A stretch of DNA of 64,000 nucleotides. Origin: Nitrosopumilus sp. GTDB taxonomy: Archaea > Thermoproteota > Nitrososphaeria > Nitrososphaerales > Nitrosopumilaceae. The notes below the pieces were generated by a model. That model did not search any database, had not been told where the DNA came from, and saw nothing but the letters and a program-made list of their open reading frames with translations. How positions within the stretch are numbered: the first letter of the stretch is position 1; every line of letters begins with the position of its first letter. Positions 10,102 to 36,881 of the stretch are shown here, piece by piece. The stretch is from contig OZ241857.1 in assembly GCA_965203315.1 (NCBI GenBank), positions 1,312,001 through 1,376,000 of the forward strand. The letters run 5' to 3'. A program made the translations under genes and the position numbers.

Positions 10102-10353
10102 GTTATCTTGTTCATCTATAACCATCATGGTAAGTGTAGATTGAACTTTGGTGATTCTTCGTATCTTATTCGTAATTATTCCACGTAGCTTTTCTGCGTC
10201 TTTTGATGTTATCTTTAGCATAATATCATAGATGCCATAAACCCCTTGAACCTCATACAAAATATCTTCACTTGCTAGTAGCGTTCTGATCTCGTTAATT
10301 ATTGACTCATCTGAACCCAAATCAGAGTTTATCAATACATATGCAGTTGGCAC
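10096..10353 (-). CDS. Lrp/AsnC ligand-binding-domain protein
   Basis: AYVLIN, V.GVYG.YDI..K, KIR.I..V.STLTM. Confidence 0.88.
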   Translation of the reverse strand: MPTAYVLINSDLGSDESIINEIRTLLASEDILYEVQGVYGIYDIMLKITSKDAEKLRGIITNKIRRITKVQSTLTMMVIDEQDNL

Positions 10354-10403
10354 ATGCAGATTTTGATCAGACAGTATTTAACCTTTGATTTTACACTTGT
10401 TGG

Positions 10404-11057
10404 ATGTTGAACACGGAGAGATATATCGATCTTACCATTGCAGTATCGCCTAATACTCCTACATTTCCAGGTTCACCAACTCCTCAATTCATTCCTTGGG
10501 CTGATCTGAACACAGATGGCTATAATCTGGAACTAGTCTTCTTTAGTTCGCATACGGGAACACATTTGGACTCTCCATATCACTTTGATAAGGACGGGAT
10601 CAAGGTAGATCAGATCCCCATAAAACGTCTGATCGGCTCTGGCATCCTAATTCAAGTTCCTAAACCGTCTAAAGGCAAGATTACCAGATCTGATATCTCC
10701 AACTTTGAGAAAGAGTTTGGAACAATCCCGCCCGACTCGTCCATATTCTTTCACACTGGATGGGATAAACGTCTAAAGAGATCCAACTATTTTACAGAGA
10801 ATCCTGGTCTTGATACATCCGCAGCAAACTATCTAAAATCAAAGAGAGTGAGTCTAGTTGGAATAGACTCACCTAGTATAGATGTAGGAGTTGCAGCCTT
10901 TCCTGTACACAAAATACTCTCAAAGAACAATATTCTAATCGTAGAGAATCTTACAAATCTAGATAAGATTAGAACACATAGATTTGATTTTACATTATTG
11001 CCACTCAAACTCAAAGATGCTACAGGTTCACCAATAAGAGCGATCGCCTCACAGTGA
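10404..11057 (+). CDS. Cyclase family (kynurenine formamidase-like) metal hydrolase
   Basis: HTGTHLDSP.HF, GIDSPS.D, H..L, ENL, GSP.RA. Confidence 0.9.
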   Translation: MLNTERYIDLTIAVSPNTPTFPGSPTPQFIPWADLNTDGYNLELVFFSSHTGTHLDSPYHFDKDGIKVDQIPIKRLIGSGILIQVPKPSKGKITRSDISNFEKEFGTIPPDSSIFFHTGWDKRLKRSNYFTENPGLDTSAANYLKSKRVSLVGIDSPSIDVGVAAFPVHKILSKNNILIVENLTNLDKIRTHRFDFTLLPLKLKDATGSPIRAIASQ

Positions 11058-11135
11058 TCTAAAACCGTACACTGATCTGTAAGATTGTATGGTAAAATTG
11101 TATAGTAAAAATATGACCAATTATATTATCAACAT

Positions 11136-11639
11136 GTGAGCAAACCTGGAAATCTCTGGCGTAAGATACATGGCACAATTACTAAAAAACCTACAAACTT
11201 TTCATGGCTGATCGATTCGTCACTAGCTGGTTCAGGCATTCCAACAACCTTTGACGAATTTACATGGATTCGTGATCAAGGAATTAAATCAATAGTAACT
11301 ATGACAGAAGAACCACTTCCTCAAAATTGGATCAAAGAGATAAACTATCTACACATCCCAACAGCTGATATGACTGCTCCCGATCTAGATTCGATAGACT
11401 CTGCTGCTGATTTTATCAATGAACAGATCAGTCGAGAGCAACCTGTGATGGTTCACTGTGCTGCAGGATTGGGTCGTGCAGGAACTATACTGGCCTGCTA
11501 TTTTATAAAATACAAGAGACTATCTGCAACCGCAGCAATTCAAAAGATTCGAGATGAACGACCAGGATCGATTCAATCTCTAGTCCAAGAGACAGCGATA
11601 TATCTATACGAGAAAGAACTAGGATCAAACAAACGTTGA
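11136..11639 (+). CDS. Dual-specificity protein phosphatase
   Basis: VHCAAGLGRAG (CX5R) and RPGSIQ motifs. Confidence 0.92.
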   Translation: MSKPGNLWRKIHGTITKKPTNFSWLIDSSLAGSGIPTTFDEFTWIRDQGIKSIVTMTEEPLPQNWIKEINYLHIPTADMTAPDLDSIDSAADFINEQISREQPVMVHCAAGLGRAGTILACYFIKYKRLSATAAIQKIRDERPGSIQSLVQETAIYLYEKELGSNKR

Positions 11640-11771
11640 TACAAGTTTACCATCTTTGACCTCTATCTTCAAGACTTTATTCTCTTGAAATATCAGAGTT
11701 AGACCACCATCTTTATCTGGATCCTCGACCTTTACAAGCTCGAGCATCTTTATAGAATCAAACTTTTCCAT
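11625..11771 (-). CDS. 48-aa small protein, paralogue of neighbouring 50-aa protein
   Basis: Manual translation MEKFDSIKMLELVKVEDPDKDGGLTLIFQENKVLKIEVKDGKLVSTFV; shares VE(D/E)PDK(D/E)GG.T.IF..N and DGK with 11778..11930. Confidence 0.8.
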   Translation of the reverse strand: MEKFDSIKMLELVKVEDPDKDGGLTLIFQENKVLKIEVKDGKLVSTFV

Positions 11772-11777
11772 GATATA

Positions 11778-11930
11778 TCACTCTGGAATCGAGACCGTCT
11801 CGATCTTGCCGTCAACTGCTTTGATAAACATAAACCGATTATCTTTAAAGATAAAAGTTATTCCACCTTCCTTGTCAGGCTCTTCAACCTCTAGAACGGG
11901 TTGCCCCAAGAGACCATCATATTTTGCCAT
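11778..11930 (-). CDS. 50-aa small conserved protein
   Basis: MAKYDGLLGQPVLEVEEPDKEGGITFIFKDNRFMFIKAVDGKIETVSIPE; tandem paralogue lies downstream. Confidence 0.8.
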   Translation of the reverse strand: MAKYDGLLGQPVLEVEEPDKEGGITFIFKDNRFMFIKAVDGKIETVSIPE

Positions 11931-12029
11931 ATACTTGACAGTTATCTCCTTGTATATATCCATAATCTATACTGATTATGCCCCTGTGCCGACATTATGA
12001 TTATGTATGCCAACTATCCAATGTTGAAC

Positions 12030-12572
12030 CTAACTCTGATCGGATATCACGACATCGATCTCTTTGGAGTTATTTTTGAGACTATCTTGTTCGGTATAGT
12101 CGTGCTTTTGCCATCCGGCAAAGACCTCTGCAGATAACTTGTGCCGGCCCTCACCCAAATCCGATCCCTTGAATACAAACTTTTCTTCAAAATCAAATAA
12201 CTCTTGGCGAACCTCCTCTTCTGTAAGTCTAATAAAAGGCTCAAAGTTTTTGGCAACCTGAACCCAGATCCTTCTATCTTTCATTGGATTTACAAGTTTT
12301 GGATTTCTAGTCCAAAATATCGATGCCTTTCTATAGGTGTTTATTGTCCTTCCCAACTCTTTCTTCCTAAATCCACCAGTTAACAGTTTTACACCATACT
12401 TTAACTTGAACGAGACATCATTCTTGTCGTATGCAGCTGTCCATCTCTCCTCATTGAATGCAGATCTAATATCTCCTTGTATTGAGAACCGTACACCTAT
12501 CTCCACATTGGAGTATGTAGTATAGGTGTCGCTGTGACTGATCACCTCAATATCAGAGATAACATTCGACAT
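12030..12572 (-). CDS. Conserved hypothetical protein
   Basis: 180-aa ORF with native composition. Confidence 0.7.
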   Translation of the reverse strand: MSNVISDIEVISHSDTYTTYSNVEIGVRFSIQGDIRSAFNEERWTAAYDKNDVSFKLKYGVKLLTGGFRKKELGRTINTYRKASIFWTRNPKLVNPMKDRRIWVQVAKNFEPFIRLTEEEVRQELFDFEEKFVFKGSDLGEGRHKLSAEVFAGWQKHDYTEQDSLKNNSKEIDVVISDQS

Positions 12573-12616
12573 GCTTACAATGATTTATAACTACAATAAG
12601 TTCTTTTTCTGAATAC

Positions 12617-12895
12617 ATGCAAGCGCAAGTGATCAGTTCTAAACCTCAAGAGATCAACATCTCACTGACTGAGGCGGATATCGGAATCTTGTATATCATA
12701 CAACATGAGCTACTGAATGATACTGCTATTGATTTTGCAGGAGTTATTGTAAAACATCCATTGACCAATGAATGTTGGATAAAGATCAATTCTAAAACTA
12801 AACCTCTCGATGGTATCAAAAGGGCGACCGACTCTGCAATAGAGATAACTAATCAATACAGACAGATATTCGAATCAAAGATTCAGGTACAGTAA
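12617..12895 (+). CDS. rpoL: RNA polymerase subunit L (Rpo11)
   Basis: Size, FAG..V.HPL motif, position directly upstream of tfs. Confidence 0.8.
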   Translation: MQAQVISSKPQEINISLTEADIGILYIIQHELLNDTAIDFAGVIVKHPLTNECWIKINSKTKPLDGIKRATDSAIEITNQYRQIFESKIQVQ

Positions 12896-12896
12896 A

Positions 12897-13205
12897 TTGA
12901 AGTTTTGTCCCAAATGTGACACCAAACTAAAAGAGATGAACTCTAATCTCCAATGTTTAAAGTGTGGATATTTAGAGGGCGAGCAAGATAAAAGACCAAA
13001 AGAGTCTAACGATTCACTCTCAAACGACTTTAATGTATTTGAAGATGAAGGAGAGACATCTCATCCTACTATAAAGATGCAGTGTGAAAAGTGTGAGAAC
13101 GACAAAGCAATCTGGTGGATGCTACAGACACGAAGTGCAGACGAACCCACGACTAGATTCTATCGTTGTACAAAATGCAACTATACGTGGCGTGACTACT
13201 CTTGA
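12897..13205 (+). CDS. tfs: Transcription factor S (TFS/RpoM family)
   Basis: FCPKC..CxxC Zn ribbon; QTRSADEPTT.FY.CTKC. Confidence 0.95.
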   Translation: MKFCPKCDTKLKEMNSNLQCLKCGYLEGEQDKRPKESNDSLSNDFNVFEDEGETSHPTIKMQCEKCENDKAIWWMLQTRSADEPTTRFYRCTKCNYTWRDYS

Positions 13206-14211
13206 ATCAAACGAGTAAAACCATCAACCGTCTAGGTCACATCTTGTGTACATTGAGACATTGGTGTCGTCTCGTACCTAGATCTCTACCTCTAGTATGT
13301 GTCGATCAGTCTGTGATGACTAATTCTGGTTTGTGGAATATGAAAAGTCATTCGCCCCTTCATTTGACATGATGTTCATCTCCTGACGACTCGTCAATAA
13401 CTGTTCCTTTTTTTGGCATCTTTCGACTAAATGCTTCATGAGGTGTCTAGTACCCACTTTTTCCAAGAGACATGCGTGGTCGTTCGTAATTGTAGTTGTG
13501 TACGATAGGTCTATTGGATCACTTGTTCATTACATGTATCCTGCAAATACTGGAAATTTGCGTTCAACCTCTCCAAACAATCGTTCTACTTTACCATTGG
13601 TCTGTGGATGATTTACTCGTCCAAGAATATGTTGTATTCCTAACTGCTAATCTTGCCTCAAACTTGGATGTTCCTTTCTTCCTATTCTCAACTGCATTGG
13701 CGTAAAAACTGCGTTCCACGATCTGTGAGTATTGCTTTTGGCTTTCCGTATCTTTTAATGGCAACTTCTAGTACTACAAGTGTATTCTCTGTTGTTGCAT
13801 GGTCAAATATGCCATATCCAACTAAAACCTAGAAGCGTCGTCTAGATAGCTATTAACCATCTGCCATCATCTAGATCGACCTTCATCTCGCAATATGCGG
13901 TATATGGTATTGCGTGAGACATCTATTCACATGGCTTTTTTATCTGCCTTCTGAGACGTGTTGTGGCAAGATAACAATGCTCGTGTACAGGCAAGACAGC
14001 AGAATGTTCTAGTCTACTTGGAAAACTCTTCTTAGATCTGCCCATGTGTCTCGGATATATCATCTGCTTTGGTTTTACATTCTTGTATCGAGCCCACATA
14101 TTTTGAACTCAGCGAGTCGATGCTGGTTCTTTTAACTTATCGGGGGATTAAGATTAAGATGCAGGTATTTCAAGAAACGCCCTGTATGCAATTTAAAACA
14201 GTAATAATCTT

Positions 14212-15118
14212 GGCGATTGCTCATTTCGAGCCCCTAAGCATGTATTGTACCAATAAATCAAACAGATCGCATTCTCGGTTATTGTATCGCCACTCCATCT
14301 CCTTGAGATACAGTAAGAATTTCTTTGAACTCACACCTCGATACTTTGCCAAGTTCAATTTAGCAAAGCCCCAGAACCCTTCCATTCCATTGATGTGAAC
14401 ATCGCCTTTTGCGAAGCTCTTTTGATGATTAACTGATTCTCGATCATATCCATGAAAGATCAAGGTGTCATACCCTTTCCACTTGTCCGTGTATATCATG
14501 CTGCCCTTCTTTACTTTCTTGATCGTTGATTCAAGCAGAGTTTTAGCTGTGACGTCTGGTACAATGTCAACACGTACCTTGCCACCTCTCTGCAATATGC
14601 CAAAAACGATAGTCTTATTTCCGGCGCCGCGGCCTCGTTTTCCTTTACGTTTACCCCCAAAATACGACTCATCTGCTTCGATTTTGCCCTTTAATGTTCG
14701 ATATTCGTCATTTAGTTGCATTAGAATCACGCTCCTGAAAATATCAAAAGCTTTGAGTGCCGTATTGTAAGACAATCTTGCTTGTTTTGCAGCAACTCTT
14801 GCAGATACAGCTAGTTCAAACAATTTGACAAGTACCAGCCATTTTGAATATGAGATTTTGAGTGACGAAAATCTGGATTTGTTAAACGGTCTGAAATCTT
14901 TTTTGCATAATTTACAACGTAACCGATCTCTGTTTTTCATGTAATGGTATTGATCGCACTGACAAAATTTACAAACGATCTTGTCTGAACTATGAGATTC
15001 CAAATATTTCATTATTGCATACCCATCATTTCTCATCTCAAGAAGAGATATCAAATCCATCAAGACTTGCGTCTAAATTTAGTCATATTTAGTTAGGGGC
15101 TCGAAATGAGCAATCGCC
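14212..15118 (-). mobile_element. IS1595-family insertion sequence (907 bp)
   Basis: Perfect 26-bp TIR GGCGATTGCTCATTTCGAGCCCCTAA; imperfect flanking repeat TAATCTT/TAATCTG. Confidence 0.93.
14221..15063 (-). CDS. IS1595-family DDE transposase
   Basis: N-terminal CxxC..CxxC; EADESYFGG, TD.W.GY, VNH, HINGMEGFW, YL.EMEWRYN. Confidence 0.95.
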   Translation of the reverse strand: MMDLISLLEMRNDGYAIMKYLESHSSDKIVCKFCQCDQYHYMKNRDRLRCKLCKKDFRPFNKSRFSSLKISYSKWLVLVKLFELAVSARVAAKQARLSYNTALKAFDIFRSVILMQLNDEYRTLKGKIEADESYFGGKRKGKRGRGAGNKTIVFGILQRGGKVRVDIVPDVTAKTLLESTIKKVKKGSMIYTDKWKGYDTLIFHGYDRESVNHQKSFAKGDVHINGMEGFWGFAKLNLAKYRGVSSKKFLLYLKEMEWRYNNRECDLFDLLVQYMLRGSK

Positions 15119-15333
15119 TAATCTGCAATGGGCAATCTAACCATTTTTCATAACTTGTAAAATTTTTAGAGAATATTGCGTGAAAACTATCGACCCCCCG
15201 TTAAGTTAAAAGAACCCCAATCTGAGCGAACCCACACACCTTCATTTCTACTGCAACTCAGATTGTCTGCTTGACCTAGTCATCTGGCTAGGAGTGAACA
15301 ACTTTTTGTACAACATACATAGAACACAAGATC

Positions 15334-16331
15334 TGTCTTAGACGGAAATCATTTCATATATAAACTCGAAATAAAACCATTGGTAAAGGATGCTGAATGA
15401 AAAACAAATAGCGTATATAATTAGAGAAATGCGTAAAGGCACAAGCTCATCCATCATAGCAGAGAGAATGAAGGTAACTCCCAGACGTGTGTATCAAATT
15501 TATGAATATTATATTCAGACAGGTTCAGTTCCAAAACAGCTCAATGCAGGAAGACCAAAGATAGAACCAACACCAAAACAGATTCAAATTGTAACTGCAG
15601 CATACAATGATGATCCTCGAGGTGCTATTTTTATTGCAAAACATCTGCGCTCTGCCCGCATACAAATAAGCTACAACACTGTAAAGAAGATCATGAAAGC
15701 AAAAGGTTTAGCATCTCCAGCATCTACAAACCGAACGCGTCACAAATGGATTCGCTTTGAACGAAAGTACTCTAACGCAATGTGGCATGTAGACTGGCAT
15801 GTCATAAAAGACTCCAGATGGCAAAATCTATACCTAATTTGCTACCTAGATGATGCATCCAGATGTATTACGGGCTTTGGAGTCTTTCAACATCCCACAA
15901 CAGAGAATGCACTACTTGTATTAGACAAAGCAATTAAGACGTTTGGAAGACCTGCACAGATACTATCTGATCATGGCCCCCAGTTTACATCTAACAAAGA
16001 ACCAAAGAAAGGTAAAAAGAAACCTACGCACTTTGAAAGAGCTTTACAAAAGCGTAAAATTACTCACATACTTGCAGGAGTGGGTCGTCCACAAACCAAT
16101 GGTAAGATAGAGAGATTCTTTGGAACATTTGAAAATGAGGTTGAACATCATGCCAGAATTGATGAATACATTAGTCATTACAATGAAAAAAGACCACACT
16201 TTGCTCTAGATATCGATAACGGAGAAACACCGCTTATTGCTTTTAGAGCAAAACAAGCTAGTGCTGAGATTAGAAAAAACCCAAAATGGGCAGATCTTGA
16301 CTTATATATGAAATGATTTCCGTCTAAGACA
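15334..16331 (+). mobile_element. Intact IS481-like element (998 bp), 16-bp TSD
   Basis: Perfect 30-bp TIR TGTCTTAGACGGAAATCATTTCATATATAA; TSD CATAGAACACAAGATC at 15318-15333 and 16332-16347. Confidence 0.95.
15390..16316 (+). CDS. IS481-family transposase (HTH + rve integrase core)
   Basis: WHVD, LDDASR, LSDHG.QF, PQTNGKIERF, YN..RPH. Confidence 0.95.
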   Translation: MLNEKQIAYIIREMRKGTSSSIIAERMKVTPRRVYQIYEYYIQTGSVPKQLNAGRPKIEPTPKQIQIVTAAYNDDPRGAIFIAKHLRSARIQISYNTVKKIMKAKGLASPASTNRTRHKWIRFERKYSNAMWHVDWHVIKDSRWQNLYLICYLDDASRCITGFGVFQHPTTENALLVLDKAIKTFGRPAQILSDHGPQFTSNKEPKKGKKKPTHFERALQKRKITHILAGVGRPQTNGKIERFFGTFENEVEHHARIDEYISHYNEKRPHFALDIDNGETPLIAFRAKQASAEIRKNPKWADLDLYMK

Positions 16332-16381
16332 CATAGAACACAAGATCACAATTGTTTTATAATATGTTATAGTTCGGCGTA

Positions 16382-19300
16382 TTGTTGTATAAGAAAAATC
16401 ATACGTTGGTTCTTGTACTTGCATTATTTGTAATTGTACCTAGTATAGTCTTTGCTCAAAATACAGATAATCTAGAATCGTCTGTTGTACCTGATATTGA
16501 ACCCACCGATAATACAATTGGTCCTGTTGCAAATGTTGGTGTCGAGTACAAGTTCGATGATGGTTTTTACCAAAAAATTCAGGATCTGAGCAAAGAGACT
16601 CCTCAAGAAGGCGATCCCGGTGTATATGACGGTACCAGATACTATAGTGTAATACTAGTTGTGAATCGAGACGATGGTGACGATAGAACAGGTGACGAGA
16701 CCGCGAAGGAGAACAAAGGTGCTCTTGTAAAGCGACTGGAACTATTAGGAGCTCGAGATATCCTTGCAGCAGAGTCTCTCTCTTTTGTAACTGCTTCTAT
16801 ACCTGTAGGAGAAGTTCCTGGCTTTTCGTTACATGATGAGGTATTTCAGTTAGGTGATGGTGAACTACCCATATTTCCTGCTGTGGATATTGCTAGAAGA
16901 ACGATCAATGCCATGCCTGAAGATCTATCTAGAATAAATAATCAAAATCTTACTGGTAGCGGTATAGTCGTTGCGGTTGTAGATACAGGAATAAACAGCA
17001 TATATCTAAATGATAAAGTTCGTGAGAGGATATATTGTCCAGACAGAACTTGTTGGGCAGAAAATGGTTTGATCATGGGACAATCTACCCTTGAACTCGG
17101 TTTACTGAATACCACAGATTCTACACATGGTACACGCGTTGCGCAAGTACTTGCAGCTTCTGGAATGTCAAATCACAATGGAATTGCGCCAGGGGTCACA
17201 TTGTTGGACGCAATGTATGGTAGTCAATCTTTAATTGGGAACGTTGTTTTCCACAATCCAGACAGTACTTTCTATGTCCATGCAATTGACTGGGCGTATA
17301 AACAAGGTGCAAACATATCAAATCTTAGTGCAGGTTACGATATATGTGACAACTTTTTTGATATTGTTTCGTACAACTTGATTGTGAATGAAGCAGTAGA
17401 TAAAGGAATGATAGTTGTCAAATCAGCAGGAAATCGAGGTTTTAATAATACTGCACAAACCGCATCTTATAATTCTATAACTAATCCAGGATGCGCAAAT
17501 AACGTAATTACCGTGGGAGGCATCGATGATCGTTCTTCTAGCGAAAAAGAAATGTATACTAATTCAAGCCGAGGACCATCAACCGACAACACTCCCGTAT
17601 TGAAACCAGAGATAGTTGCTCCCGCTTATATGATTCAAACACTTAATAACACTCTAAATGATGATGCCGGTCCTCGTTCGGGTACAAGCTATGCAACACC
17701 TCAAGTAAGTGCAGCAGCTGCATTGATGTTAGAAGCAGAGCCAAGCCTTACTCCGATAGAAGCAAAGGCACTGTTATTACTAGGGGCAAACTGGCAGGGT
17801 CCAATTCCGTGCACATCTACTCAATACGAACGAAACAATCCAACTAACGATTGCTCTTTTGCAAGGCAGCCAGCAGATCCAGATACAGCTAATAATGCTG
17901 ATTCACTAAGCATACTAAACAATGTTGGATTTGGCATACTCGATGTAGGACAATCAGTCGTATATTCATCACGTGCTCTATCTCATGTTATGTCAGATCA
18001 TCTTGATCCTCTGGGCATAACATCCAAGGGATATACATTTACAGTAACCAATACATCAGAGCCTGTAAAGATAATTCTTACGTGGCTTGTACATCCACAT
18101 GGCGGCATATTGGAACAGGATAATCGTAACACTGCTGCTCCAGTAGCTGATCTAAACTTTACAGTAAGATGTAATGGCGGTCAAACTATCTCTGCCACAT
18201 CATCACATCAAACAAACGAGTTTGTAGTGTTTAGACCTTCACAAACTGGAACTTGTACTATAACTGTTACGGGCTCTGGACTAGATACCATAAACAAACC
18301 TGTACAAAACTATGCTCTTGCAAGTACACGTCCACTAACTACCGTACTGCCATCCAACAACTTACCGAGTGCAACATCTGATTCTTTTATCGTCAGTCCA
18401 GGAATGCCATCCACAGTATACTTTACTGGACGAGATGCTAACGGTGATTCCATATCGTTTAGTGTAACACGCGATCCAACTCAAGGCATAATAACCACGG
18501 ATGAGTTTATCACAAAGACTCACTCCCGAGCAATGTACACGCCATATGACAACTTTACAGGAAGAGACACATTTCAGATTACGCCATCTGATGGTGTAAA
18601 TCAACGAGGTATTCCTGCAACCATAACTCTGATAGAAGAGACACTGCCTCCAAACTCACAAAAGGCTACTACAAGATCTGACAATGTACGTGATTGGGAC
18701 ACTAGCATATTTTCCTCAAACACGCCATTGACTACATCTAGTAAGACATTTACCGGCCCAACATATCCAGTATCTGCAATTCATATAGGCTCTGTAAATG
18801 TGGAGGGCGGACTTGCCACATTTACAACATCAGATGGCAACACATATCGAGCTGTTGTACCGCCGAGTGGTGCCAGAATGATAGAGTTTCCATCATCCAT
18901 AATGATTAGAACGATGGAACTTGCTTCAGAGTGGATAGATGAGGAATCAATACACAACACAACGAAAAACATACCTACCGACATTCGAATCTTTGCAGGA
19001 TATGTACCTAGTTCATGTGTATCACTATCTGGATCAAGCGGTGCCAACTCTTGTCCTGCACATACGACACACTTGTTTAGTTCATCTCCAAATCTTGCAA
19101 TTCCAGACAACGCAGACAATCAAGACACAACTGACACTATTCGCATATCTGAGAATGGCACAATAAGAAAGATTACTGTATCTCTGGATATAACTCACAC
19201 ATTCATTGGTGATCTCAAAGTTATACTTACACCACCTAGTGGCAAACCCATAACGTTACATGATCGAACAGGCGGAAATCAAGATGACCTCAAGAGATCA

Positions 19301-21151
19301 TATACGTCAGAGATATCTTCTCTCATCGGTACCCATCTTGCAGGCGATTGGGTCTTGTCAGTCGGTGATTATGCAGGTAGCGATGTAGGACGAATAAATT
19401 CGTGGTCTATAAGTACAGAGTCTGCTTTCACAGATGCTCCTGTTACGTCGCCAACCGTCCCATCTACGCCTAGACCCACAAACACAACAATATTCTCTGA
19501 CAACTTTGAGTTATCCCTCTCTGACAAGTGGACCGAATCTGGCGAGAGTGATTGGAGAATTACAACACCCAGCGCTCACTATGTTCCAAATGTACCTGGT
19601 TCATCTCCAACAAACAAGATATTACATGCCGACAATTGTGATACTGGTTGTACATTAACACTAACCAATTCAATAGACCTATCTGGATACACCTCAGCAA
19701 CACTCTCTTTTTGGCGATTTGTTGATTCGTCTCTAGATGATGATGAATATCTCAAAGTTGAACTGTACAACGGCAGAACATGGAATACGATATATCATTG
19801 GTCAGATAACTTGGATAATGATGATGGTCGATGGAATTTAGAGTCATACAATTTACAATCGTATCTGGTATCAAACTTTAAGATGAGACTGGTAACTCAA
19901 CAGAGTTCTACCACTGAAGACGTACAGATAGACGATATCAAGATAACTAGTGGTTCTACAACCACATCTAGACCGACTGTACCATCTACAACTCAATACT
20001 CGATATATGTGGCAGATACAGACGATGACGAGATTGCCGTATTCTCTTCTGCCGGTACATTTGTTGGCAATATCATTCCTCGAGGATCAGGGGATCTAGA
20101 TTATCCAACCGATCTAGTATTTGACACAAATGGAAACATCTATGTCTCTGATTTCATAAACAACAAGATTCGCAAGTATTCCAGTACTGGATCAGTACTA
20201 GACAAAACCTGGGCTACAACTGTAGGATCTCCGCACGGGATGACATGGAATGGAGACACACTATACGTTGCAACGGCACGTGGTGTGGAGCGATTTTCAC
20301 TGTCTGGTTCTTCTCTAGGATTATTTGGTGATGCTGTTCAAGGAACTAACCCATCACATACGAATAAACTATCCACACCGAGCGATGTAATATTCTGCAA
20401 CAACAAAATGTATGTTGCAGATAGTGGTTGGGGTAAAATATTCTACTATTCTACTTCTGGTTCTCTGTTAGGTACAATCTCACCGGGTACAAATAATCCA
20501 AACACCCAACATTCTAGGGGACTAGAGTGTGGTCCAGCAATAATCGGTAGTGGCACTAGTCTATATCAGAGTGGTGGTGATGCTGGAAGAGTAAATGAGA
20601 TAAACTATCGTACAAATTCCTTGATACGCGAGTTTACATCAGATGTTGATGAGCCACATCGTATGGATATGGATAGTCTAGGTAATCTCTATGTCGCAAA
20701 CAAGGACGATGATAATATAATAATGATCAACCAAACAGGTGTAACAGAGGTTGCAGATTATAGACTTGATGATCCACGCGGTGTACAGATAGGGCCTGTA
20801 TACAGATCAATATCCGGTTCTTCTGGACAGGACATACCCGATAATGATCAACCCGAGTTTGACGTATTATTGCAAAACGGTACACGTGCTAGTACACCAC
20901 TGTTCATGACATCAAACAGCTCTATCACATTATACGTGAACGCAACTGACCCACAAGACGATCCAATTACAATTGGTATCATACCTGAACTTATACCAGA
21001 ATCTAGTTTATTATTCATAGATAACAAGAATGGCACAGCTAGTGTTACTATAGACACCATAGATTTGGATGCTGGTAACTATCTGTTCTGGATTAAAGTA
21101 TCTGATGATACAGAGTTTGATCAGTCGCCATTTCTAGTGAGTGTTCAATGA
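16382..21151 (+). CDS. Secreted multidomain S8 (subtilisin-like) serine protease
   Basis: Signal peptide; catalytic VVDTG, HGTRVA, SAGN, GTSYATP; then Ig/cadherin-like domain, proprotein-convertase P-domain (ITHTFIGDL...GDW.L.V.D), S/T/P linkers, beta-sandwich, NHL-type propeller (YVAD/YVSD repeats), C-terminal cadherin-like domain. Confidence 0.93.
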   Translation: MLYKKNHTLVLVLALFVIVPSIVFAQNTDNLESSVVPDIEPTDNTIGPVANVGVEYKFDDGFYQKIQDLSKETPQEGDPGVYDGTRYYSVILVVNRDDGDDRTGDETAKENKGALVKRLELLGARDILAAESLSFVTASIPVGEVPGFSLHDEVFQLGDGELPIFPAVDIARRTINAMPEDLSRINNQNLTGSGIVVAVVDTGINSIYLNDKVRERIYCPDRTCWAENGLIMGQSTLELGLLNTTDSTHGTRVAQVLAASGMSNHNGIAPGVTLLDAMYGSQSLIGNVVFHNPDSTFYVHAIDWAYKQGANISNLSAGYDICDNFFDIVSYNLIVNEAVDKGMIVVKSAGNRGFNNTAQTASYNSITNPGCANNVITVGGIDDRSSSEKEMYTNSSRGPSTDNTPVLKPEIVAPAYMIQTLNNTLNDDAGPRSGTSYATPQVSAAAALMLEAEPSLTPIEAKALLLLGANWQGPIPCTSTQYERNNPTNDCSFARQPADPDTANNADSLSILNNVGFGILDVGQSVVYSSRALSHVMSDHLDPLGITSKGYTFTVTNTSEPVKIILTWLVHPHGGILEQDNRNTAAPVADLNFTVRCNGGQTISATSSHQTNEFVVFRPSQTGTCTITVTGSGLDTINKPVQNYALASTRPLTTVLPSNNLPSATSDSFIVSPGMPSTVYFTGRDANGDSISFSVTRDPTQGIITTDEFITKTHSRAMYTPYDNFTGRDTFQITPSDGVNQRGIPATITLIEETLPPNSQKATTRSDNVRDWDTSIFSSNTPLTTSSKTFTGPTYPVSAIHIGSVNVEGGLATFTTSDGNTYRAVVPPSGARMIEFPSSIMIRTMELASEWIDEESIHNTTKNIPTDIRIFAGYVPSSCVSLSGSSGANSCPAHTTHLFSSSPNLAIPDNADNQDTTDTIRISENGTIRKITVSLDITHTFIGDLKVILTPPSGKPITLHDRTGGNQDDLKRSYTSEISSLIGTHLAGDWVLSVGDYAGSDVGRINSWSISTESAFTDAPVTSPTVPSTPRPTNTTIFSDNFELSLSDKWTESGESDWRITTPSAHYVPNVPGSSPTNKILHADNCDTGCTLTLTNSIDLSGYTSATLSFWRFVDSSLDDDEYLKVELYNGRTWNTIYHWSDNLDNDDGRWNLESYNLQSYLVSNFKMRLVTQQSSTTEDVQIDDIKITSGSTTTSRPTVPSTTQYSIYVADTDDDEIAVFSSAGTFVGNIIPRGSGDLDYPTDLVFDTNGNIYVSDFINNKIRKYSSTGSVLDKTWATTVGSPHGMTWNGDTLYVATARGVERFSLSGSSLGLFGDAVQGTNPSHTNKLSTPSDVIFCNNKMYVADSGWGKIFYYSTSGSLLGTISPGTNNPNTQHSRGLECGPAIIGSGTSLYQSGGDAGRVNEINYRTNSLIREFTSDVDEPHRMDMDSLGNLYVANKDDDNIIMINQTGVTEVADYRLDDPRGVQIGPVYRSISGSSGQDIPDNDQPEFDVLLQNGTRASTPLFMTSNSSITLYVNATDPQDDPITIGIIPELIPESSLLFIDNKNGTASVTIDTIDLDAGNYLFWIKVSDDTEFDQSPFLVSVQ

Positions 21152-22488
21152 ACAGACTGATTATAATAGCATCCATCATAATCGGTGTATCATCTCTTGT
21201 GGGCATATTGTACGTTACAAACCCCGATATGTGGATACAGATTATAGATCGATCAAACTATGAGCCCAAAGATATTGTATCCATAAACAACGAGTTTGCC
21301 ATAAACTTTTACAAAACCATCTATGACGATCCCAAATACCAAGACAAAAACATCCTTTTCTCGCCGACTAGCTTGATTACGGCATTTTCTATACTGTATG
21401 AGGGGGTAGATGGCGATGCTGCAAAACAGATAGAAAAGGTATTTGGATTTAATCCAGATGCTCAAACTAGACACGAATCGCTAAAAAAGTTATGGTCAAT
21501 TGTAAACAACGACACGAAGCATATGGGAGTTGTCTCTTATAAAGAGTGTTGTGATAAGGACAAACATGGATATTATCATACTAACACAATACAAGTTCAT
21601 GAGAAATGGACAGACATCAATATAATCAACAGTATGTGGATTACAAGGAATGGCAGTTTCACTGATAAATACATCAACAAAATTCAAAACACATTCAAAA
21701 ATCAGGTGAAAATAATTGAGCATTTTAATCACAAAGACATAGATGAAATGAATGAATGGATCAGTACAAACACAAGAGAAAAAATAACGGATGTTTTTTC
21801 ATTGGGCGACTTTAAAAATTCATCTTCGTTACTAGCGAGTAATGCGTATTTTAAATCAGCTTGGGAGTTGCAATTTGAACCACGTTATTTAGAAAAAACT
21901 GTTTTTTGGGCGAGCAGCAAAGAAGTAATAGCAGAAGGGATGATACAGCCTGCATGGAGTGGTTACAAATATGCATATTATGATAACGTACAAGTATTAA
22001 ACATACCATACAAGCAAAAACATCTCTCGATGACAATAATACTACCAAATGATCGAAACGGCATAAAAGAGATAGAAGAGATAATATCTGTAAAGCAAAT
22101 TGAGGAATGGCAAAGTAGTTTAGAACAGACATTCCTGTACGTAGAAGTACCAAAATTCGAGATAAATTATAACTATGATTTCTCTGAGATATTTGAGCAA
22201 TTGGAAATAAAAGATGTATTTAGATCAAAGAATAACCTTCCGGATACAGCAATTCCAGATTCAATTGAAAAAGCATACATCGACAAGTTGTATCATCCAG
22301 TGTATTTCTTATTTGATCAGATGGGTACAGATACAAGATATAGACAACCTACAGTAATATTAGATGATATAGCGTATATGCCAAATCTATACTTTTATGC
22401 TAAACATCCATTCATATTCTTTGTACAAGATAATGACACTGGGCTGATACTATTCATGGGCAAGATAGTCGATCCAACTTTGGACTGA
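21148..22488 (+). CDS. Serpin-family protein with N-terminal membrane anchor
   Basis: NILFSP.S, N.W....T...I, N.YFK..W...F, LSM.I.LP, PKF, HPF.F......LILFMGKI.DP; ATGA overlap with protease stop. Confidence 0.93.
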   Translation: MNRLIIIASIIIGVSSLVGILYVTNPDMWIQIIDRSNYEPKDIVSINNEFAINFYKTIYDDPKYQDKNILFSPTSLITAFSILYEGVDGDAAKQIEKVFGFNPDAQTRHESLKKLWSIVNNDTKHMGVVSYKECCDKDKHGYYHTNTIQVHEKWTDINIINSMWITRNGSFTDKYINKIQNTFKNQVKIIEHFNHKDIDEMNEWISTNTREKITDVFSLGDFKNSSSLLASNAYFKSAWELQFEPRYLEKTVFWASSKEVIAEGMIQPAWSGYKYAYYDNVQVLNIPYKQKHLSMTIILPNDRNGIKEIEEIISVKQIEEWQSSLEQTFLYVEVPKFEINYNYDFSEIFEQLEIKDVFRSKNNLPDTAIPDSIEKAYIDKLYHPVYFLFDQMGTDTRYRQPTVILDDIAYMPNLYFYAKHPFIFFVQDNDTGLILFMGKIVDPTLD

Positions 22489-22563
22489 TCTAACAACCAG
22501 TCATTTGTATTGTATGAAAGAGGGTTTTAACTTATCGGTGGGTAGTAAATTGACAAATTAGAC

Positions 22564-23665
22564 TGTGGGATCCGGAAAGTAGTTCGCCCCTCGTTTGATG
22601 TGGTATTCTTTTACGAGTCATCGATTTCTACTCCTTTTGGTGGTTGTTTGTTGATAAACGCTTTGTATGGTGCCTCTCTGACGTCAATATTGAGAGACGT
22701 GTGAATGCGTTCATAGTTGTACCATTTCATTGTATTTACTACAAACATGTCTACCGGATCACTTGTTCGTTGCATGTATCCTGCAAATACCGGATATTTG
22801 TGTTCTACCTCCCCAAACAGTCGTTCTACTTTGCCGTTGATCTGTGGATGATTTACGCGTCAGAGAATGTGCTGTATTCCTAGTTCTGCTAATCTCGCCT
22901 CAAACTTGGATATTCCTTTCTTCTTGTTTTCAGCTGCATTGGCGTAAAACTGCGTTCCATGATCTGTAAGAATTGCTTTTGGTTTTCCATAATTTTTGAT
23001 GGCCTCATCCAACACTGCAAGCGCATTCTCTGCTGCTGCGTGGTCAAATGTATCACATCCGACCACAAATCTAGACGCAACGTCCAGATAAGCGATTAAC
23101 CATCTACCATCAGGCAGTTGTTTCCAGTCTACATGCCATAGAGTTGGAATGTTTACGCTCATATCGCACAAATTTGCGTTGATGTTTGCGTTGTTTTTTG
23201 GTTAGACTCTCATCTCGTAGGATCTTTTGTATCATGTATCGTGGAACGCTTATTCCAAGATACTCTACTAGATCACGTTTGAGATTTGCAGCTCCTTGAC
23301 CTGTTAAAGCACGTAGCGTCATTACTGTAGAGTGTTCTAGCCTACCTACTAGACTCTTCTTGGGCCTACTCATGGGTTTTGGGTATACCATCTGATTTGG
23401 TTCTACATTCTTGTATCTGGCAAACAATTTTTGAATCCAACGAACCGATATGCCCATCTGTTCTGCAATTATTGCATTCTTGGTTCCTTTGCTCTTTTCT
23501 CGTACAATGTATTGTACTTTTTGTTGATCTAATTTACTCACTCTTCGAATTCGCTTCTTGCATACATATTTCCACCTCTCATCATAACTACGTACATGCT
23601 TTCGACGGGGCTTGGAACCTGCACCTACACTCTTGATTGAGGGGTGAACTACTTTCCGGATCTTA
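22564..23665 (-). pseudogene. IS481-family element with frameshifted/nonsense transposase
   Basis: ORFs 23110..23541 and 22860..23171 join across a 2-bp deletion, then an in-frame TGA; IRs GATCCGGAAAGTAGTTCGCCCCTC (22569-22592) and GAGGGGTGAACTACTTTCCGGATC (23639-23662), 23/24 match. Confidence 0.9.
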
Positions 23666-23718
23666 GACTAATTCTAGTTCACAAGGATTAAGTAGTAGAA
23701 AATTTGCCAAATATTGAT

Positions 23719-24468
23719 TTGAGTTTTGGAGCAAAGACAAATGGGTCTGACGACCTAAAGGCGATAATATCTGCAATATCAACTCTAGTAGATGAGGCAA
23801 CTTTTGTTGCTACATCTGAAGGAATAACATTTCGTGGGATGGATCCATCACATGTTGCTTTGATCGATATCTCTTGGCCCAACTCTGCATTTGAAGCGTA
23901 CGAGTGTGATGGTGACATCAAGTTTGGAGTACGAATAGACGAGTTTTCAAAACTGATCAAACGAGCAGACAAGAACGATAGCATTCAGATAAACATCTCT
24001 GATGATAACATGTTATTGGTGACTATTGGCAAGAACAAGAAATACAAGATGCGACTGATCGAGAGTACTGCAACTGATACTCCATTACCCAAGATTCCAT
24101 ACGACTCTAAGATTAGTGTACAACTAGCCAAATTTGACAAGATTATTGGTGATGTCCAAGTAGTATCTGAGTTTTTAACGATTCAGACATCTGGTACAAA
24201 TGCAGTATTCGCTGGCAAAGGCGATAGTGGTGAGGTAAACATCACATTCGAAAAGGACGAGGAAGACGAAGATGAAGAGGTCACCACAAAGGAAGACAGT
24301 TCTGGAACCTACGACCTAGAGTACCTCAACTCCGTCGTCAAGGCAGTACGTAACGCCGCAGGCGTAATCACATGTGAGTTTTCGAGCGCCAAACCTCTTA
24401 GAATAGAGTTCAAGATATCAAATATCGGTAGAATTCACTTTTATCTTGCTCCACGTGTGGAAAACTAA
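23719..24468 (+). CDS. pcn: DNA polymerase sliding clamp PCNA
   Basis: MDPSHVAL, KPLRIEF, FYLAPR; probable TTG start at 23719. Confidence 0.97.
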   Translation: MSFGAKTNGSDDLKAIISAISTLVDEATFVATSEGITFRGMDPSHVALIDISWPNSAFEAYECDGDIKFGVRIDEFSKLIKRADKNDSIQINISDDNMLLVTIGKNKKYKMRLIESTATDTPLPKIPYDSKISVQLAKFDKIIGDVQVVSEFLTIQTSGTNAVFAGKGDSGEVNITFEKDEEDEDEEVTTKEDSSGTYDLEYLNSVVKAVRNAAGVITCEFSSAKPLRIEFKISNIGRIHFYLAPRVEN

Positions 24469-24508
24469 AAAGCATTTTTAAAGTATTGACTAGGTTAGAT
24501 AATTTGAA

Positions 24509-25897
24509 TTGAAACTAGTAATCAAGTATGGAGGTAGCTCTATAGCATCTGCTGCTAGCATTCAAAACTGTGCAAAATATATTGCCTCACTATCTGAGAA
24601 CCAGCTCATTGTTGTATGTTCGGCCACGGATGGAACAACCGATGAGCTTATCGAGATATCAAAATCAATAAAGAAAGAGAATAAAAAGAGAGCAGAGCAA
24701 TTCGTAGCAAAACTAATTCGCCATCACAAACAACTAGCCACCAAAACCATCAAGAAAGATACAGTACGTAAACGACTCTTGACTAATCTTGAGAGAGACT
24801 TTGTAGAACTCTCTAATCTGATCGACGGAATGGTTCTACTTGGTGAAGTGACTCAACGAACCATGGACTATCTGCTATCGTTTGGTGAGAGGTTATCAAT
24901 AAAGATCGTCTCAGCCGCACTCGAGGATGCACGCAAACGATCTATTCCCCTAACAGGCAAAGAGATCGGAATAGTAACTGACTCGAACTTTGGAGAGTCA
25001 AGACCTCTATTAGATACAACCAAACTTCGAGTCTCTAAGACCATCGATGAACTATTTGAAAAGGGAGTAATTCCTGTTGTGGGTGGATTCTCTGGTGCAG
25101 ATCAACACGGTCATGTTACAACATTTGGACGTGGCGGTTCAGACTATACCGCAACAATAATTGGCTCATCTATTGCAGCAGATGAGATCTGGTTATTGAG
25201 TGACGTGGATGGCTTGATGACTGCAGATCCAGCGATTGTGAGAGACGCAAAGTTGATCAATGAAGTATCATATACCGAAGCAGTAGAGATGGCGCTGTTT
25301 GGCGCAAAACAGATCCATCCACGTACATTTGAGCCACTATTATCAAAGAAGATTCCGATGCGCATTCGTAGTTCATTCAACCACGAAAATCAAGGGACAC
25401 TGATATCCATGTCACCATCTATATCCACAAAGGATACCATAAAATGCGTAAGTAACATACGAAACAATGGCCTCATCGATATACGTGGTGGTAGTATGGT
25501 GGGAACACCAGGTACCGCAGCTAGAATATTCGCAACATTAGCAAAGGCTGGCGTAAACGTTATGATGATCTCACAGAATCCATCCGAGTCTAGTATTACA
25601 ATTGTAGTTAAAAATGCCGATCTAGACAAAGCAGTCAACGCACTTGAACTCGAACTACTCGGCAGCATAATCAAAAAACTAGAGATTACCACCAATGTTG
25701 CAATAATCGCATTAATTGGTTCTGGTATGCGTGGAACAGTTGGTGTCGCCTCTAAAGTCTTTAACGCAATTGAACAACACAACATAAACGTCTCAATGAT
25801 AACTCAAGGATCATCAGAACTGAATCTAGCATTTGTAGTCAAAGATAGTGATGCACTGACTGCTGTTCGCGCACTACATACTACATTTGAACTATAA
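24509..25897 (+). CDS. lysC: Aspartate kinase
   Basis: KYGGSS, GERLS, TFGRGGSDYTA, DVDG.MTADP, two ACT domains. Confidence 0.95.
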   Translation: MKLVIKYGGSSIASAASIQNCAKYIASLSENQLIVVCSATDGTTDELIEISKSIKKENKKRAEQFVAKLIRHHKQLATKTIKKDTVRKRLLTNLERDFVELSNLIDGMVLLGEVTQRTMDYLLSFGERLSIKIVSAALEDARKRSIPLTGKEIGIVTDSNFGESRPLLDTTKLRVSKTIDELFEKGVIPVVGGFSGADQHGHVTTFGRGGSDYTATIIGSSIAADEIWLLSDVDGLMTADPAIVRDAKLINEVSYTEAVEMALFGAKQIHPRTFEPLLSKKIPMRIRSSFNHENQGTLISMSPSISTKDTIKCVSNIRNNGLIDIRGGSMVGTPGTAARIFATLAKAGVNVMMISQNPSESSITIVVKNADLDKAVNALELELLGSIIKKLEITTNVAIIALIGSGMRGTVGVASKVFNAIEQHNINVSMITQGSSELNLAFVVKDSDALTAVRALHTTFEL

Positions 25898-26081
25898 ATC
25901 TGCATAAACCAAATGATGATCTCTGGGGGGATTGATCTTGTACCACAAGTCTATTAGAAATATGATTATAAAGTGTACACTTTAGGATCATAAAATTCAG
26001 TCTGGTGTCATATGACATATCTAAAACCGACTGTACAAATTAAGCAAAATCATTTATGGGAATATATGCGATGCAATCTAG

Positions 26082-27515
26082 ATGAATAGACTATTTATCA
26101 TATTGATCTTTGGCATCATCATATCTGGGACTCTATCTGTTTCAACAGCTGATCAAATTAGTGATTCTACAAAATTTCATTTCACTCAAACTATCTCATC
26201 CTCACAAGATCTAGGACAGGGATACGAAGAGTATCAGATGGCACTAGTGTTGTCCCCAAATACGACAACCATCTACGACGGCTCTATGACATTTATCTCA
26301 AACAGTCCTGTAACTCCTATCGTATTCCACGAGATAGCAAGCGATGAAATTATAGATCAATCGGTTTGGACTGTTGACGGTAAATCATTCTTTGTTATAT
26401 CAGAGCTTGGTGCACCCAAGACTTCGGCTAGTTTCGAGTTTACTGGAGCTGCATTGGGTCTACGAGCCGAATCAGAATTTTCTGCAACATTAAGTACCAG
26501 TGGATCGATTCATGGTCAACCGGTCGATCTTGTTATACCGCGATTAGATGATAAAGAGATATCGTTACATTTGTCTAGAACCAACATTCCTGTCACGATC
26601 CCAATGCACAAAGGACTGTACAATGGTAGCAACATGTCTTTTATTATTACAGACAGTAGTGATGCCGAGTATGCTAAAATAATCTCTGAGATAAAAGATT
26701 GGCAAGTACAACATGCACCACCATTGAGAGACGCTCCTAACAGCACACTACAAAAACTCTTTGTCTTTAAAAATGGAATCAAAGGGAGTGGTCTATTTGG
26801 TTATCAACCTAATATTCTCTCGTCTATACCATCGGCGTCAAACTATAGTGCCCTCGTATCTGTGATTGAAGTATCTTGGAAGACTGGCCAACGTCCTATG
26901 AAACTTGATACCATATCTAGTATTATGACTACAGCTGATAGTAATCGGATCAAACTCAATGATACTGGTATAGTGCTCAATGCACCTCAAATAACTTGGC
27001 CTGGCGGTCAAATGATGGTTCGCTCTAATGATACAATAACTGATGAAACAGCATATAGTGGCCAGATAGTCGAAATAAATCATGTTGCTATGAACGTTAC
27101 GTTTGTTGCTCATCGAGGATGGGGACCTGATGGTCGAACTGTATACTGCATAGTAACTGATGCCACACCAAAAGGACCTGCAGAGACGATGGGTACTATT
27201 GTATCGCCGACATCTGTAAATTTGATCGCGAGTCCGGTAGCAGCTGATCTATTCCAGTTCAAAAACGGTATCATTGGATCTGGTCCATTAGGATTTCAAC
27301 CATCTATTGCATCTGCAGCGCCTGGTGATGAAGATTATACTCCTATGTGGCGTGTCTACCTAGTGGAATGGAAGGATCCAAAGACTGCCAAAGTCTTAGA
27401 GACGACAACAGACATTGATCACTTTAGATCATCAGAGATGTTGTCAGTTAGTATTGCCAGACCTACAAATCTCAGCTATATTCTCAACTGTCCAATCATT
27501 GATCCATTCCAATAA
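26082..27515 (+). CDS. Secreted hypothetical protein with two internal repeat domains
   Basis: Signal peptide; repeated F.NGI.GSG..G.QP.I.S..P...YS/YTP motif. Confidence 0.7.
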   Translation: MNRLFIILIFGIIISGTLSVSTADQISDSTKFHFTQTISSSQDLGQGYEEYQMALVLSPNTTTIYDGSMTFISNSPVTPIVFHEIASDEIIDQSVWTVDGKSFFVISELGAPKTSASFEFTGAALGLRAESEFSATLSTSGSIHGQPVDLVIPRLDDKEISLHLSRTNIPVTIPMHKGLYNGSNMSFIITDSSDAEYAKIISEIKDWQVQHAPPLRDAPNSTLQKLFVFKNGIKGSGLFGYQPNILSSIPSASNYSALVSVIEVSWKTGQRPMKLDTISSIMTTADSNRIKLNDTGIVLNAPQITWPGGQMMVRSNDTITDETAYSGQIVEINHVAMNVTFVAHRGWGPDGRTVYCIVTDATPKGPAETMGTIVSPTSVNLIASPVAADLFQFKNGIIGSGPLGFQPSIASAAPGDEDYTPMWRVYLVEWKDPKTAKVLETTTDIDHFRSSEMLSVSIARPTNLSYILNCPIIDPFQ

Positions 27516-34978: not shown

Positions 34979-35794
34979 TACGTCTAGCTAGTGGAATCAT
35001 CAGAATTATCATAAACCCAACAACCAATGGAATCATCATTGAAAACTCTGGAATAACGGTCGTACCTACCATAACTATCTCGCCTGGCTCAGATGGTTTC
35101 ATATGAACCCAGACATGCGTATCATTTCTATGATCGATCTGCGCAAAGAGTCTCTCTTCGTTTAGGAATACACTATATGGCTCTCCTAGTAGCTCTAATG
35201 GCATCACAATAGTCAGATACTGATCTGCTGTTGAAACGTCAACAGAGATACTCTTTGTCGGCTGTTCAAACACAAAGTCTTCCACCATCAAATGTGTAAT
35301 GATTTCAACATCAAACCGTCTGTCCTCCCATGTTGCATATTTTACAATACTCTTCTCACCTAACGAATACTCTAGTGTGATCTGACATCCATGACATACA
35401 ACTCCATCACTTTCATCCATGTGGATACTACGGCCATTTAGATATACAACTTGGACATCATCTGGAAAACTAAATTTGGTTGTCATTTGATAATGAAACT
35501 CCCAACTCCAATATTCTCTATCTTTTATTATTGCATCTTTTAGTTTATACTCTACGATCAAATTGGTAGTAGACGGTAGTAACAAGATTCTACCATCTCC
35601 AACCATCTCGTATGCCTTTACTTGACCGTCCTCATCTGTAACCGTTATGTTTGTAGGAGTTCCTTTTATGAGATCAAGATGCTGTGGTGTACCAGAACGT
35701 ACAACTGTGTGCTTTACATTAGCGACACCGTCAGAGCTAGTTGCAATCTCCACTCGCAGTTGGTTGGCATCTATTTCAACATCGGCTTGTTGAG

Positions 35795-36799: not shown

Positions 36800-36881
36800 C
36801 ATCGGCTTGTTGAGCAAATACATTAAAAGCTGTTAGAGCTATAGATGCAACCAATACTAGTACAACAATATGCGGTATCAT

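Follow-up and report, generated by a model that had tools for sequence, protein, structure and literature searches.

A subtilase-serpin operon between two dead IS481-like elements in the tfs-pcn cluster of a Nitrosopumilus genome: a candidate fossil of composite transposition

The window considered here is a stretch of 64,000 nucleotides (nt) from a Nitrosopumilus sp. genome (C1:1312001-1376000, C1 being a contig of the assembly), and counts described below as genome-wide cover both strands of the 2.47 Mb genome. Within this window, a 10.3-kb block carrying the genes of an S8 subtilase, predicted to be secreted, and of a serpin separates tfs from pcn, and a dead relic of an IS481-like insertion sequence (IS) stands at each of its borders. 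An earlier note on this DNA had proposed that the two ISs moved together as a composite transposon and delivered the protease and the serpin into the locus. The features on which the argument turns, and the genes that surround them, are the following (window coordinates).

13318..13331 (strict register 13320-13331), plus strand: left copy of a direct repeat, GACTAATTCTGGTT, abutting the terminus of relic A.
23666..23679 (strict register 23668-23679), plus strand: right copy of the direct repeat, GACTAATTCTAGTT, its first 2 nt overlapping the terminus of relic B.
13332..15317, minus strand: relic A, the decayed remains of an A-type IS481-like element, both termini present (TGTGGAATATG...GTACAACATA); interrupted by a miniature inverted-repeat transposable element (MITE) and collinear with an A-type copy.
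22564..23667, minus strand: relic B, a decayed B-type IS481-like element with both termini (TGTGGGATCC...GGATCTTAGA) and 24-nt inverted repeats, 96% identical.
16382..21151, plus strand: S8 subtilase, predicted secreted, 1589 amino acids (aa), intact open reading frame (ORF); Pfam Peptidase_S8, P_proprotein and NHL.
21148..22488, plus strand: serpin, 446 aa, hydrophobic N-terminus; Pfam Serpin PF00079, 249 bits (cutoff 27), profile positions 3-370 of 370.
13206..13317, unstranded: lineage-specific, unique spacer of 112 bp from the tfs stop to the left repeat; no homolog and no Rfam match.
12617..12895, plus strand: rpoL (RNA polymerase subunit L), left flank; Pfam RNA_pol_L_2, 52 bits; syntenic in relatives.
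12897..13205, plus strand: tfs (TFIIS-type zinc-ribbon transcription factor S), left flank; Pfam Zn_ribbon_TFIIS, 69 bits.
23704..24468, plus strand: pcn (PCNA sliding clamp), right flank; 78-80% identical in aa to relatives; Pfam matches PCNA_N (71 bits) and PCNA_C (62 bits).

The two border elements are co-oriented, the remains of both transposases lying on the minus strand, and fragments of each match IS481 and rve models, which confirms their description in the earlier note as decayed, co-oriented IS481-like elements. Relic A is 81-89% identical to its best match, the A-type copy C1:1294114-1293014, and retains only short ORF remnants; relic B is 93-96% identical to the copy C1:444434-448487. 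They represent two subtypes, 83% identical over 365 nt, and each relic is of a single subtype at both termini. A- and B-type relics occur at 51 places genome-wide, all of them broken, and IS relics are often nested or clustered, for example at C1:1293-1295 kb. Elsewhere in the genome, a 717-bp IS481-like relic (C1:722105-722821), whose left end is A-like and whose right end is of the B type, lies between flanks that resemble each other in inverted orientation, and is possibly a chimeric or rearranged copy.

The outer ends of the block (the left end of A against the reverse complement of the right end of B) match at 20 of 32 nt, compared with 18/32 for the two ends of A and 26/32 for those of B, and all four relic ends share the core AAAGTnnTTCnCCCCT. 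Because the outer ends match each other no worse than A's own ends do and the core is shared, the mixed subtypes pose no obstacle in principle, and the outer ends may be regarded as a candidate usable inverted-repeat pair.

Outside both ends of the block lies the 14-mer that the earlier note had reported with one mismatch, at 13318-13331 and 23666-23679; the two copies are identical at 13 of 14 bases, and pcn starts 24 bp beyond the right one. Genome-wide, only three sites match the 14-mer with at most one mismatch, namely both block copies and an unrelated site at C1:432042. On the left, the 14-mer directly adjoins relic A, whose terminus at 13332 reads TGTGG. In elements of this kind, 23 left ends (the two relics and 21 other copies) all start with TGT and show no conservation upstream of it. 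On the right, all four of the other B-type right ends in the genome read ...GGATCTTACA (that is, ...TTACA), and relic B is therefore taken to end at 23667 (...TTAGA). It follows that the repeat is 12 bp long in register, CTAATTCT(G/A)GTT; a length of 14 bp would require the loss of the terminal CA from the IS. The inner flanks, CATAGAACACAAGATC at relic A and AATTGACAAATTAGAC at relic B, are without the 14-mer, so the claim that neither relic has the repeat on its inner side stands.

The target-site duplications (TSDs) of the IS481-like group in this genome, read from the flanks, measure 15-16 bp in all six cases in which they could be measured: 16 bp for IS-C, an intact element within the block; 15 bp for the three near-identical copies of IS-C and likewise for a 79% relative at window 35794-36802; and 16 bp for C1:444434-448487, the sole B-type copy with both ends and a detectable duplication. 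The comparison drawn in the earlier note is thus borne out for the intact elements, while the repeat itself, at 12-14 bp, is shorter than their duplications.

A chance origin of the flanking repeat is very unlikely. Among 400,000 random position pairs 1-12 kb apart, a 12-nt in-register repeat with at most one mismatch and a slack of +-2 nt was present in 46 (1.15e-4). Similarly, among the 14 listed A/B-type left-right end pairings within 12 kb, a flank repeat occurs only in one genuine single IS (16-bp TSD) and in the pair formed by relics A and B. Other readings of the repeat were tried and rejected. As part of a repeated element, the 14-mer would correspond to the interior of MITE-1, the MITE that splits relic A, where ...AAATTTGAC is followed by ACTAAATTTTAG; this is only loosely similar, no other MITE copy matches at two or fewer mismatches, and there is no space for the remaining MITE before pcn. 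A 6-bp TSD belonging to relic B itself (TTAGAC) is ruled out, since TTA is part of the IS terminus.

The cargo goes beyond the protease and the serpin: IS-C and a MITE fragment lie beside these two genes, and relic A itself holds a MITE and an IS1595 element.

14125..15216, unstranded: MITE-1, with 22-nt inverted repeats GGTTCTTTTAACTTATCGGGGG, within relic A; carries the nested IS1595.
14212-15118 (transposase 14221-15063), minus strand: IS1595 nested in MITE-1; Pfam DDE_Tnp_IS1595, 124 bits, and NCBIfam IS1595, 152 bits.
15334..16331 (transposase 15390-16316, 308 aa), plus strand: IS-C, an intact 998-bp IS481-like element with 33-nt inverted repeats, 97% identical.
22522..22563, plus strand: MITE-1-type left-end fragment of 42 nt, cut by relic B; its 39-mer at 22525-22563 is 95% identical to MITE ends at C1:446439, 471375 and 732882.

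IS-C has a 16-bp TSD, CATAGAACACAAGATC, at 15318-15333 and 16332-16347, flush with the inner terminus of relic A. It consists of a single transposase ORF with an rve core and a helix-turn-helix (HTH) domain between terminal inverted repeats, and its best NCBIfam family is IS481 (NF033577), at 181 bits against a cutoff of 224, followed by IS3 at 97 bits. There are four intact copies of IS-C in the genome (three besides this one), 99-100% identical in protein, and the IS1595 element, present in several copies that are 99-100% identical, matches two copies on contig C5 at 100%. Judged by this near-identity of several copies, IS-C and IS1595 look active while the A and B types are dead, a pattern that indicates successive waves of IS activity.

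The inner junctions of the relics carry a further part of the evidence. Homology to the nearest S8 paralog in the genome begins at CATAGAAC, the base adjoining the inner terminus of relic A; upstream of that point the DNA of the paralog continues, interrupted only by a 224-bp MITE, and a third locus continues without an insertion. At the other end, relic B truncates its MITE at 42 nt, where three other MITE copies continue with ACTAAATTTTAG..., which is absent beyond relic B. Neither relic has a TSD of its own. As aligned with these copies, both inner junctions are truncation joints. That each relic joins unrelated DNA on its two sides, without a duplication of its own, fits a two-ended move of A...B to a new target. 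The 224-bp MITE at the S8 paralog (TA flanks, more than 15 genome copies; C1:218409-218650) lies 2-4 nt from the point, upstream of the S8 promoter, that matches the joint of IS-C and relic A. Insertions may favour this point as a hot spot, or IS ends may be targeted.

Comparison with relatives bears on whether the block is a newcomer at this site. Among 24 same-genus genomes searched with a 13-kb query, 21 gave matches, and in all 21 tfs and pcn are adjacent on one contig; in 19 of these, going by the listed coordinates, no more than 37 bp separates the two flank matches. The distance from the tfs stop to the position aligned with the pcn start is 19 bp in all 11 loci examined, the spacer reading CGTTTAACTGGAACTTTAA or variants of it. 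Larger spacers of ~354 bp and ~118 bp were observed in two relatives (G002 and G018, respectively), neither of them homologous to the spacer of the genome studied here, and no protease or serpin lies between tfs and pcn in these relatives. Because tfs and pcn are neighbours in 21/21 matching genomes, the block is, on this comparison, an insertion relative to the genus. The examined relatives are distant, with protein identities of 57-65% for TFS and 78-80% for PCNA.

The sequence between the tfs stop and relic A, 126 bp in length, is without a counterpart in 150 other genus genomes, with 0/58 matches running beyond the tfs stop, and the spacer at 13206-13317 has no other copy or repeat relative within its own genome. 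A stretch at 13228-13249 was considered as an older IS relic on account of 19/22 similarity to the IS-C end and flank, and was rejected as being at the level of many chance inverted repeats. Since the target lies in a lineage-specific spacer, the empty-site test is inapplicable to these relatives. The earlier note had predicted that they would show tfs and pcn joined around a single 14-mer; the two genes are indeed joined, but by non-homologous spacers that do not contain it.

Public sequencing runs provide a view of both junctions. The left flank is present in 7 public runs from 4 studies, and no RNA run is among those listed. Contigs cross the left junction without difference at 12300-13384 (runs X1, X4 and X5) and at 13290-13512 (X7), and contigs joining the interior of relic B to pcn extend over 23636-24700 in X1 and 23511-24700 in X4 and X5. 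The left junction is therefore confirmed by contigs from 4 studies and the right junction from 3. Among the contigs listed for these four runs, none has a joint that skips 13332-23667, with the limit that contigs drop rare variants, and the result shows only that the occupied form is the common form in public runs. In metagenome contigs, likewise, there were 0 matches to an exact 24-mer of the left flank and an exact 24-mer of the right flank, so that the empty site expected there by the earlier note did not appear.

In run X5, a high-depth contig departs from the window at 12780, within rpoL, and then reads GAGAGTTAATTCTAGTTCAAAACC, which matches 23668-23681 beside relic B at 13 of 14 bases; this may be a coincidence or a recurrent junction in a related organism. 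Further upstream in the same neighbourhood, two relatives carry insertions of 3.5 kb (G014, C1:1290542-1294029) and 4.4 kb (G007, C1:1568108-1572553) between a 180-aa ORF and rpoL.

What is observed is the anatomy of the block, the outer repeat with its rarity, the status of the block as an insertion when compared with relatives, and a truncation joint at each inner end. A fossil transposition of composite type, in which A...B moved as a two-ended unit, explains these observations most economically, and we consider it probable though far from certain. A single transposition would have joined both outer ends to the target, and the events may have followed one another as described here. An A-type IS would have inserted just upstream of the S8 promoter at a donor S8/serpin operon elsewhere, and a B-type IS into a MITE downstream of the donor serpin. 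A transposase of the IS group would then have treated the two outer ends, one belonging to A and the other to B, as a single pair, and the whole unit, comprising A, the S8 gene, the serpin gene, the MITE fragment and B, would have moved into the lineage-specific tfs-pcn spacer. The target CTAATTCTRGTT would have been duplicated over 12-14 bp, perhaps originally over 15-16 bp. Later, both flanking ISs would have decayed, a MITE with a nested IS1595 would have entered relic A, and an active IS-C would have inserted beside the inner end of A, while the protease and serpin genes would have remained intact. The fuller statement, that a two-subtype IS481-like composite transposon brought an intact protease/serpin operon and its promoter into a cluster of core information-processing genes, we regard as about evenly balanced between true and false.

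Several observations weigh against composite transposition. First, the repeat, which has one mismatch, spans 12 bp when read in strict register and 14 bp if B lost its CA, as against 15-16 bp in 6/6 TSDs; a deletion of 2-4 nt at one junction would reconcile the two lengths, but this is ad hoc. Second, the flanking ISs are of different subtypes and seemingly unequal in age. Third, there is no intact A-type or B-type transposase in the genome, the longest ORFs being 203-235 aa compared with ~308 aa for IS-C. The unit is therefore a fossil whose mobility cannot be shown, and is not at present the mobile module of the earlier note. Fourth, the target sits in a spacer unique to this genome, which calls for an extra, earlier event to provide the spacer. 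An empty site with a single 14-mer was not found, the spacers of the relatives being non-homologous and without the 14-mer. A second copy of the unit or a donor site was not found in the genome either, where no cargo copy exceeds 85% identity overall, and none of the five other S8/serpin loci has an A- or B-type relic within 5 kb, although such relics stand at 51 places in the genome. Finally, no listed public contig piece spans the block, and its internal order rests on the assembly. The proposal of the earlier note thus keeps the insertion, the non-chance repeat at the outer ends only and the truncation joints on its side, and lacks the empty site, the donor and the second copy.

Of the other explanations, the one that survives best, although we think it unlikely, is that one IS481-like element in the spacer made the repeat and that the S8/serpin segment entered afterwards through homologous recombination between ISs, from a circular or distant segment, with no composite transposition. 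Such a history would likewise yield target repeats at the outer ends only, and the 51 places with A/B-type relics, together with the mosaic S8 paralogs described below (synonymous divergence, dS, of about 1 vs 0.05-0.14), point to frequent recombination between repeats. It predicts, however, hybrid ISs, one original element having supplied the left portion of A as well as the right portion of B, whereas both termini of A are A-type and B shows the B subtype over its whole length. Because each relic is single-subtype at both ends, a single IS later split by homologous recombination is argued against, and recombination also leaves a repeat shorter than 15-16 bp unexplained.

A little less likely still is the arrival of the block, or of a larger piece including the 112-bp spacer, by site-specific integration (with a 12-14-bp att core) or by illegitimate recombination, the repeat standing at the IS termini by coincidence. 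The length of the repeat, which misfits the IS group, and a left spacer without homolog in its own genome or in 150 genus genomes are in keeping with such a route. So is the tendency of the neighbourhood to take up DNA repeatedly, as two other species have enlarged, unrelated tfs-pcn spacers and two have the 3.5-4.4-kb insertions just upstream. However, no Pfam match to a recombinase or integrase domain besides the IS transposases was found among 13 ORFs scanned, and no Rfam match or tRNA target lies at the block borders (scans of 12000-25000 and 10000-27000). Moreover, the repeat adjoins the IS terminus exactly on the left and lies no more than 2 nt off it on the right, and GC content is flat over the block and equal to that of the surroundings. 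Far less probable than either is that the relics inserted independently beside genes already present or otherwise arrived, with the repeat as a chance match: relics are densely spread (51 places), frequently nested or in clusters, and within the window 14 of 100 shuffles gave at least two matches at two or fewer mismatches, but the in-register chance rate is 1.15e-4, only 3 genome sites match at one mismatch or fewer, neither relic has its own TSD, and relatives lack these genes at the site. Together, the transposition and its three rivals leave part of the probability unassigned.

The two genes presumed to have been moved by the composite transposition are themselves well preserved. The S8 subtilase has a signal-peptide-like N-terminus, followed by an S8 domain (PF00082, 134 bits, cutoff 21.8), an immunoglobulin (Ig)-like domain, a P-domain (P_proprotein, 59 bits) and an NHL propeller; its translation is stop-free and contains the stretches VVDTG, HGTRV and GTSYATP, which we take to be the catalytic Asp, His and Ser motifs. 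The start codon of the serpin overlaps the stop codon of the S8 gene (ATGA). Around serpin residues ~390-420 (window 22240-22400), where the hinge of the reactive-centre loop is expected, the protein reads ...DQMGTDTRYRQPTVIL..., with bulky and charged residues at positions where inhibitory serpins, as we assume, have small ones (GTEAAAAT-like). The block serpin may, on this reading of its hinge, fall outside the classical inhibitors.

Both genes have their nearest relatives in the same genome. The S8 paralog at C1:218634-223757, which includes a 1589-aa gene at C1:218672-223441, is 85% identical in DNA over 5.2 kb. The two S8 genes are mosaic, with dS of 0.69-1.15 at codons 200-800 (the catalytic domain and the region following it) and 0.05-0.14 at codons 800-1589, which is suggestive of gene conversion or of an exchanged protease half. 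Because the copies exchange sequence, their divergence cannot date the event, and dating was abandoned. The serpin is 75% identical in aa and 85% in DNA to the paralog C1:396013-397254, and over the final 110 bp of its region there is 96% identity to C1:243346-243455. At C1:396003-397838 (minus strand), the region upstream of S8 is kept together with 179 bp of the gene's 5' end (89% identity), to which a full serpin is fused almost directly; the arrangement looks like a deletion derivative of the S8/serpin module. Serpin matches occur in 39 of 150 other genus genomes, the best at ~35% identity. Since the nearest homologs of the cargo are paralogs in the same genome, they point to copying within the genome and give no support for import or inter-genome spread; the idea that the element spread such genes among host-associated archaea therefore finds no backing here. 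Most likely, judging from this paralogy, the event expanded a gene family within the genome and was not an import.

Composite transposons of bacteria and archaea, such as those of the Tn10 and Tn5 types, consist of two ISs of one family that bracket passenger genes; the outer ends serve as the ends of the transposon, and the target duplication lies only outside the unit. The block resembles them in having two related ISs around passengers and a repeat at the outer ends only. It differs from typical examples in that its ISs are of two dead subtypes, its repeat is 12-14 bp compared with the 15-16 bp of the group, and no second copy or empty site is known. Within the IS481 family, TSDs range from 4 to 15 bp. 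The elements studied here share with that family (NF033577) TGT...ACA termini, terminal inverted repeats and one ORF for a DDE (rve) transposase that carries an HTH at its N-terminus, and no family scores better for the intact copy or for the relic fragments. On the other hand, the score of the intact IS-C, 181 bits, is under the curated cutoff of 224, and the TSDs, at 15-16 bp, reach or exceed the upper limit of that range.

In a soil thaumarchaeal fosmid, 19c08, an amoAB unit between identical ISs was proposed and, in the part of that paper considered here, called only potentially mobile (PMC3379541); unlike that unit as described there, the block shows a post-insertion footprint. In sponge-associated ammonia-oxidizing archaea, S08A subtilases and I4 serpins have been reported to be co-located, and transposase enrichment has been described (Moeller et al., 2019, PMC6790972; Haber et al., 2021, PMC7848895). 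The subtilase and serpin families are also known to be expanded in such archaea. The genome studied here is like those archaea, as the consulted parts of these papers present them, in having a predicted extracellular S8 gene beside a serpin with a predicted export signal, in a multi-copy family and an IS-rich genome. Those parts of PMC6790972 and PMC7848895 deal with co-location and transposase enrichment and not with an IS-bounded unit with a target duplication, and host association is a feature of the published archaea. In the literature, judged mostly by titles and the beginnings of abstracts, no IS-bounded protease/serpin unit in archaea was encountered, nor any structural trace that ties the expansion and co-location of these families to the richness in transposases.

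The kind of element is well known, and the block is a new, dead member of it in a lineage with few documented. It is a modest addition, as the mechanism is textbook knowledge for bacteria, the element is dead and inter-genome transfer is without support here. If the proposed transposition is true, the block would be a concrete example of IS-mediated copying of a protease/serpin module within a genome, linking the expansion of these families to the IS richness of the genome. It would then also represent, in Thaumarchaeota, a direct footprint of the IS-driven amplification of host-interaction gene families. If, in addition, the donor, since lost, was located on a different replicon or in a different genome, the element would also have been a vehicle for inter-genome exchange.

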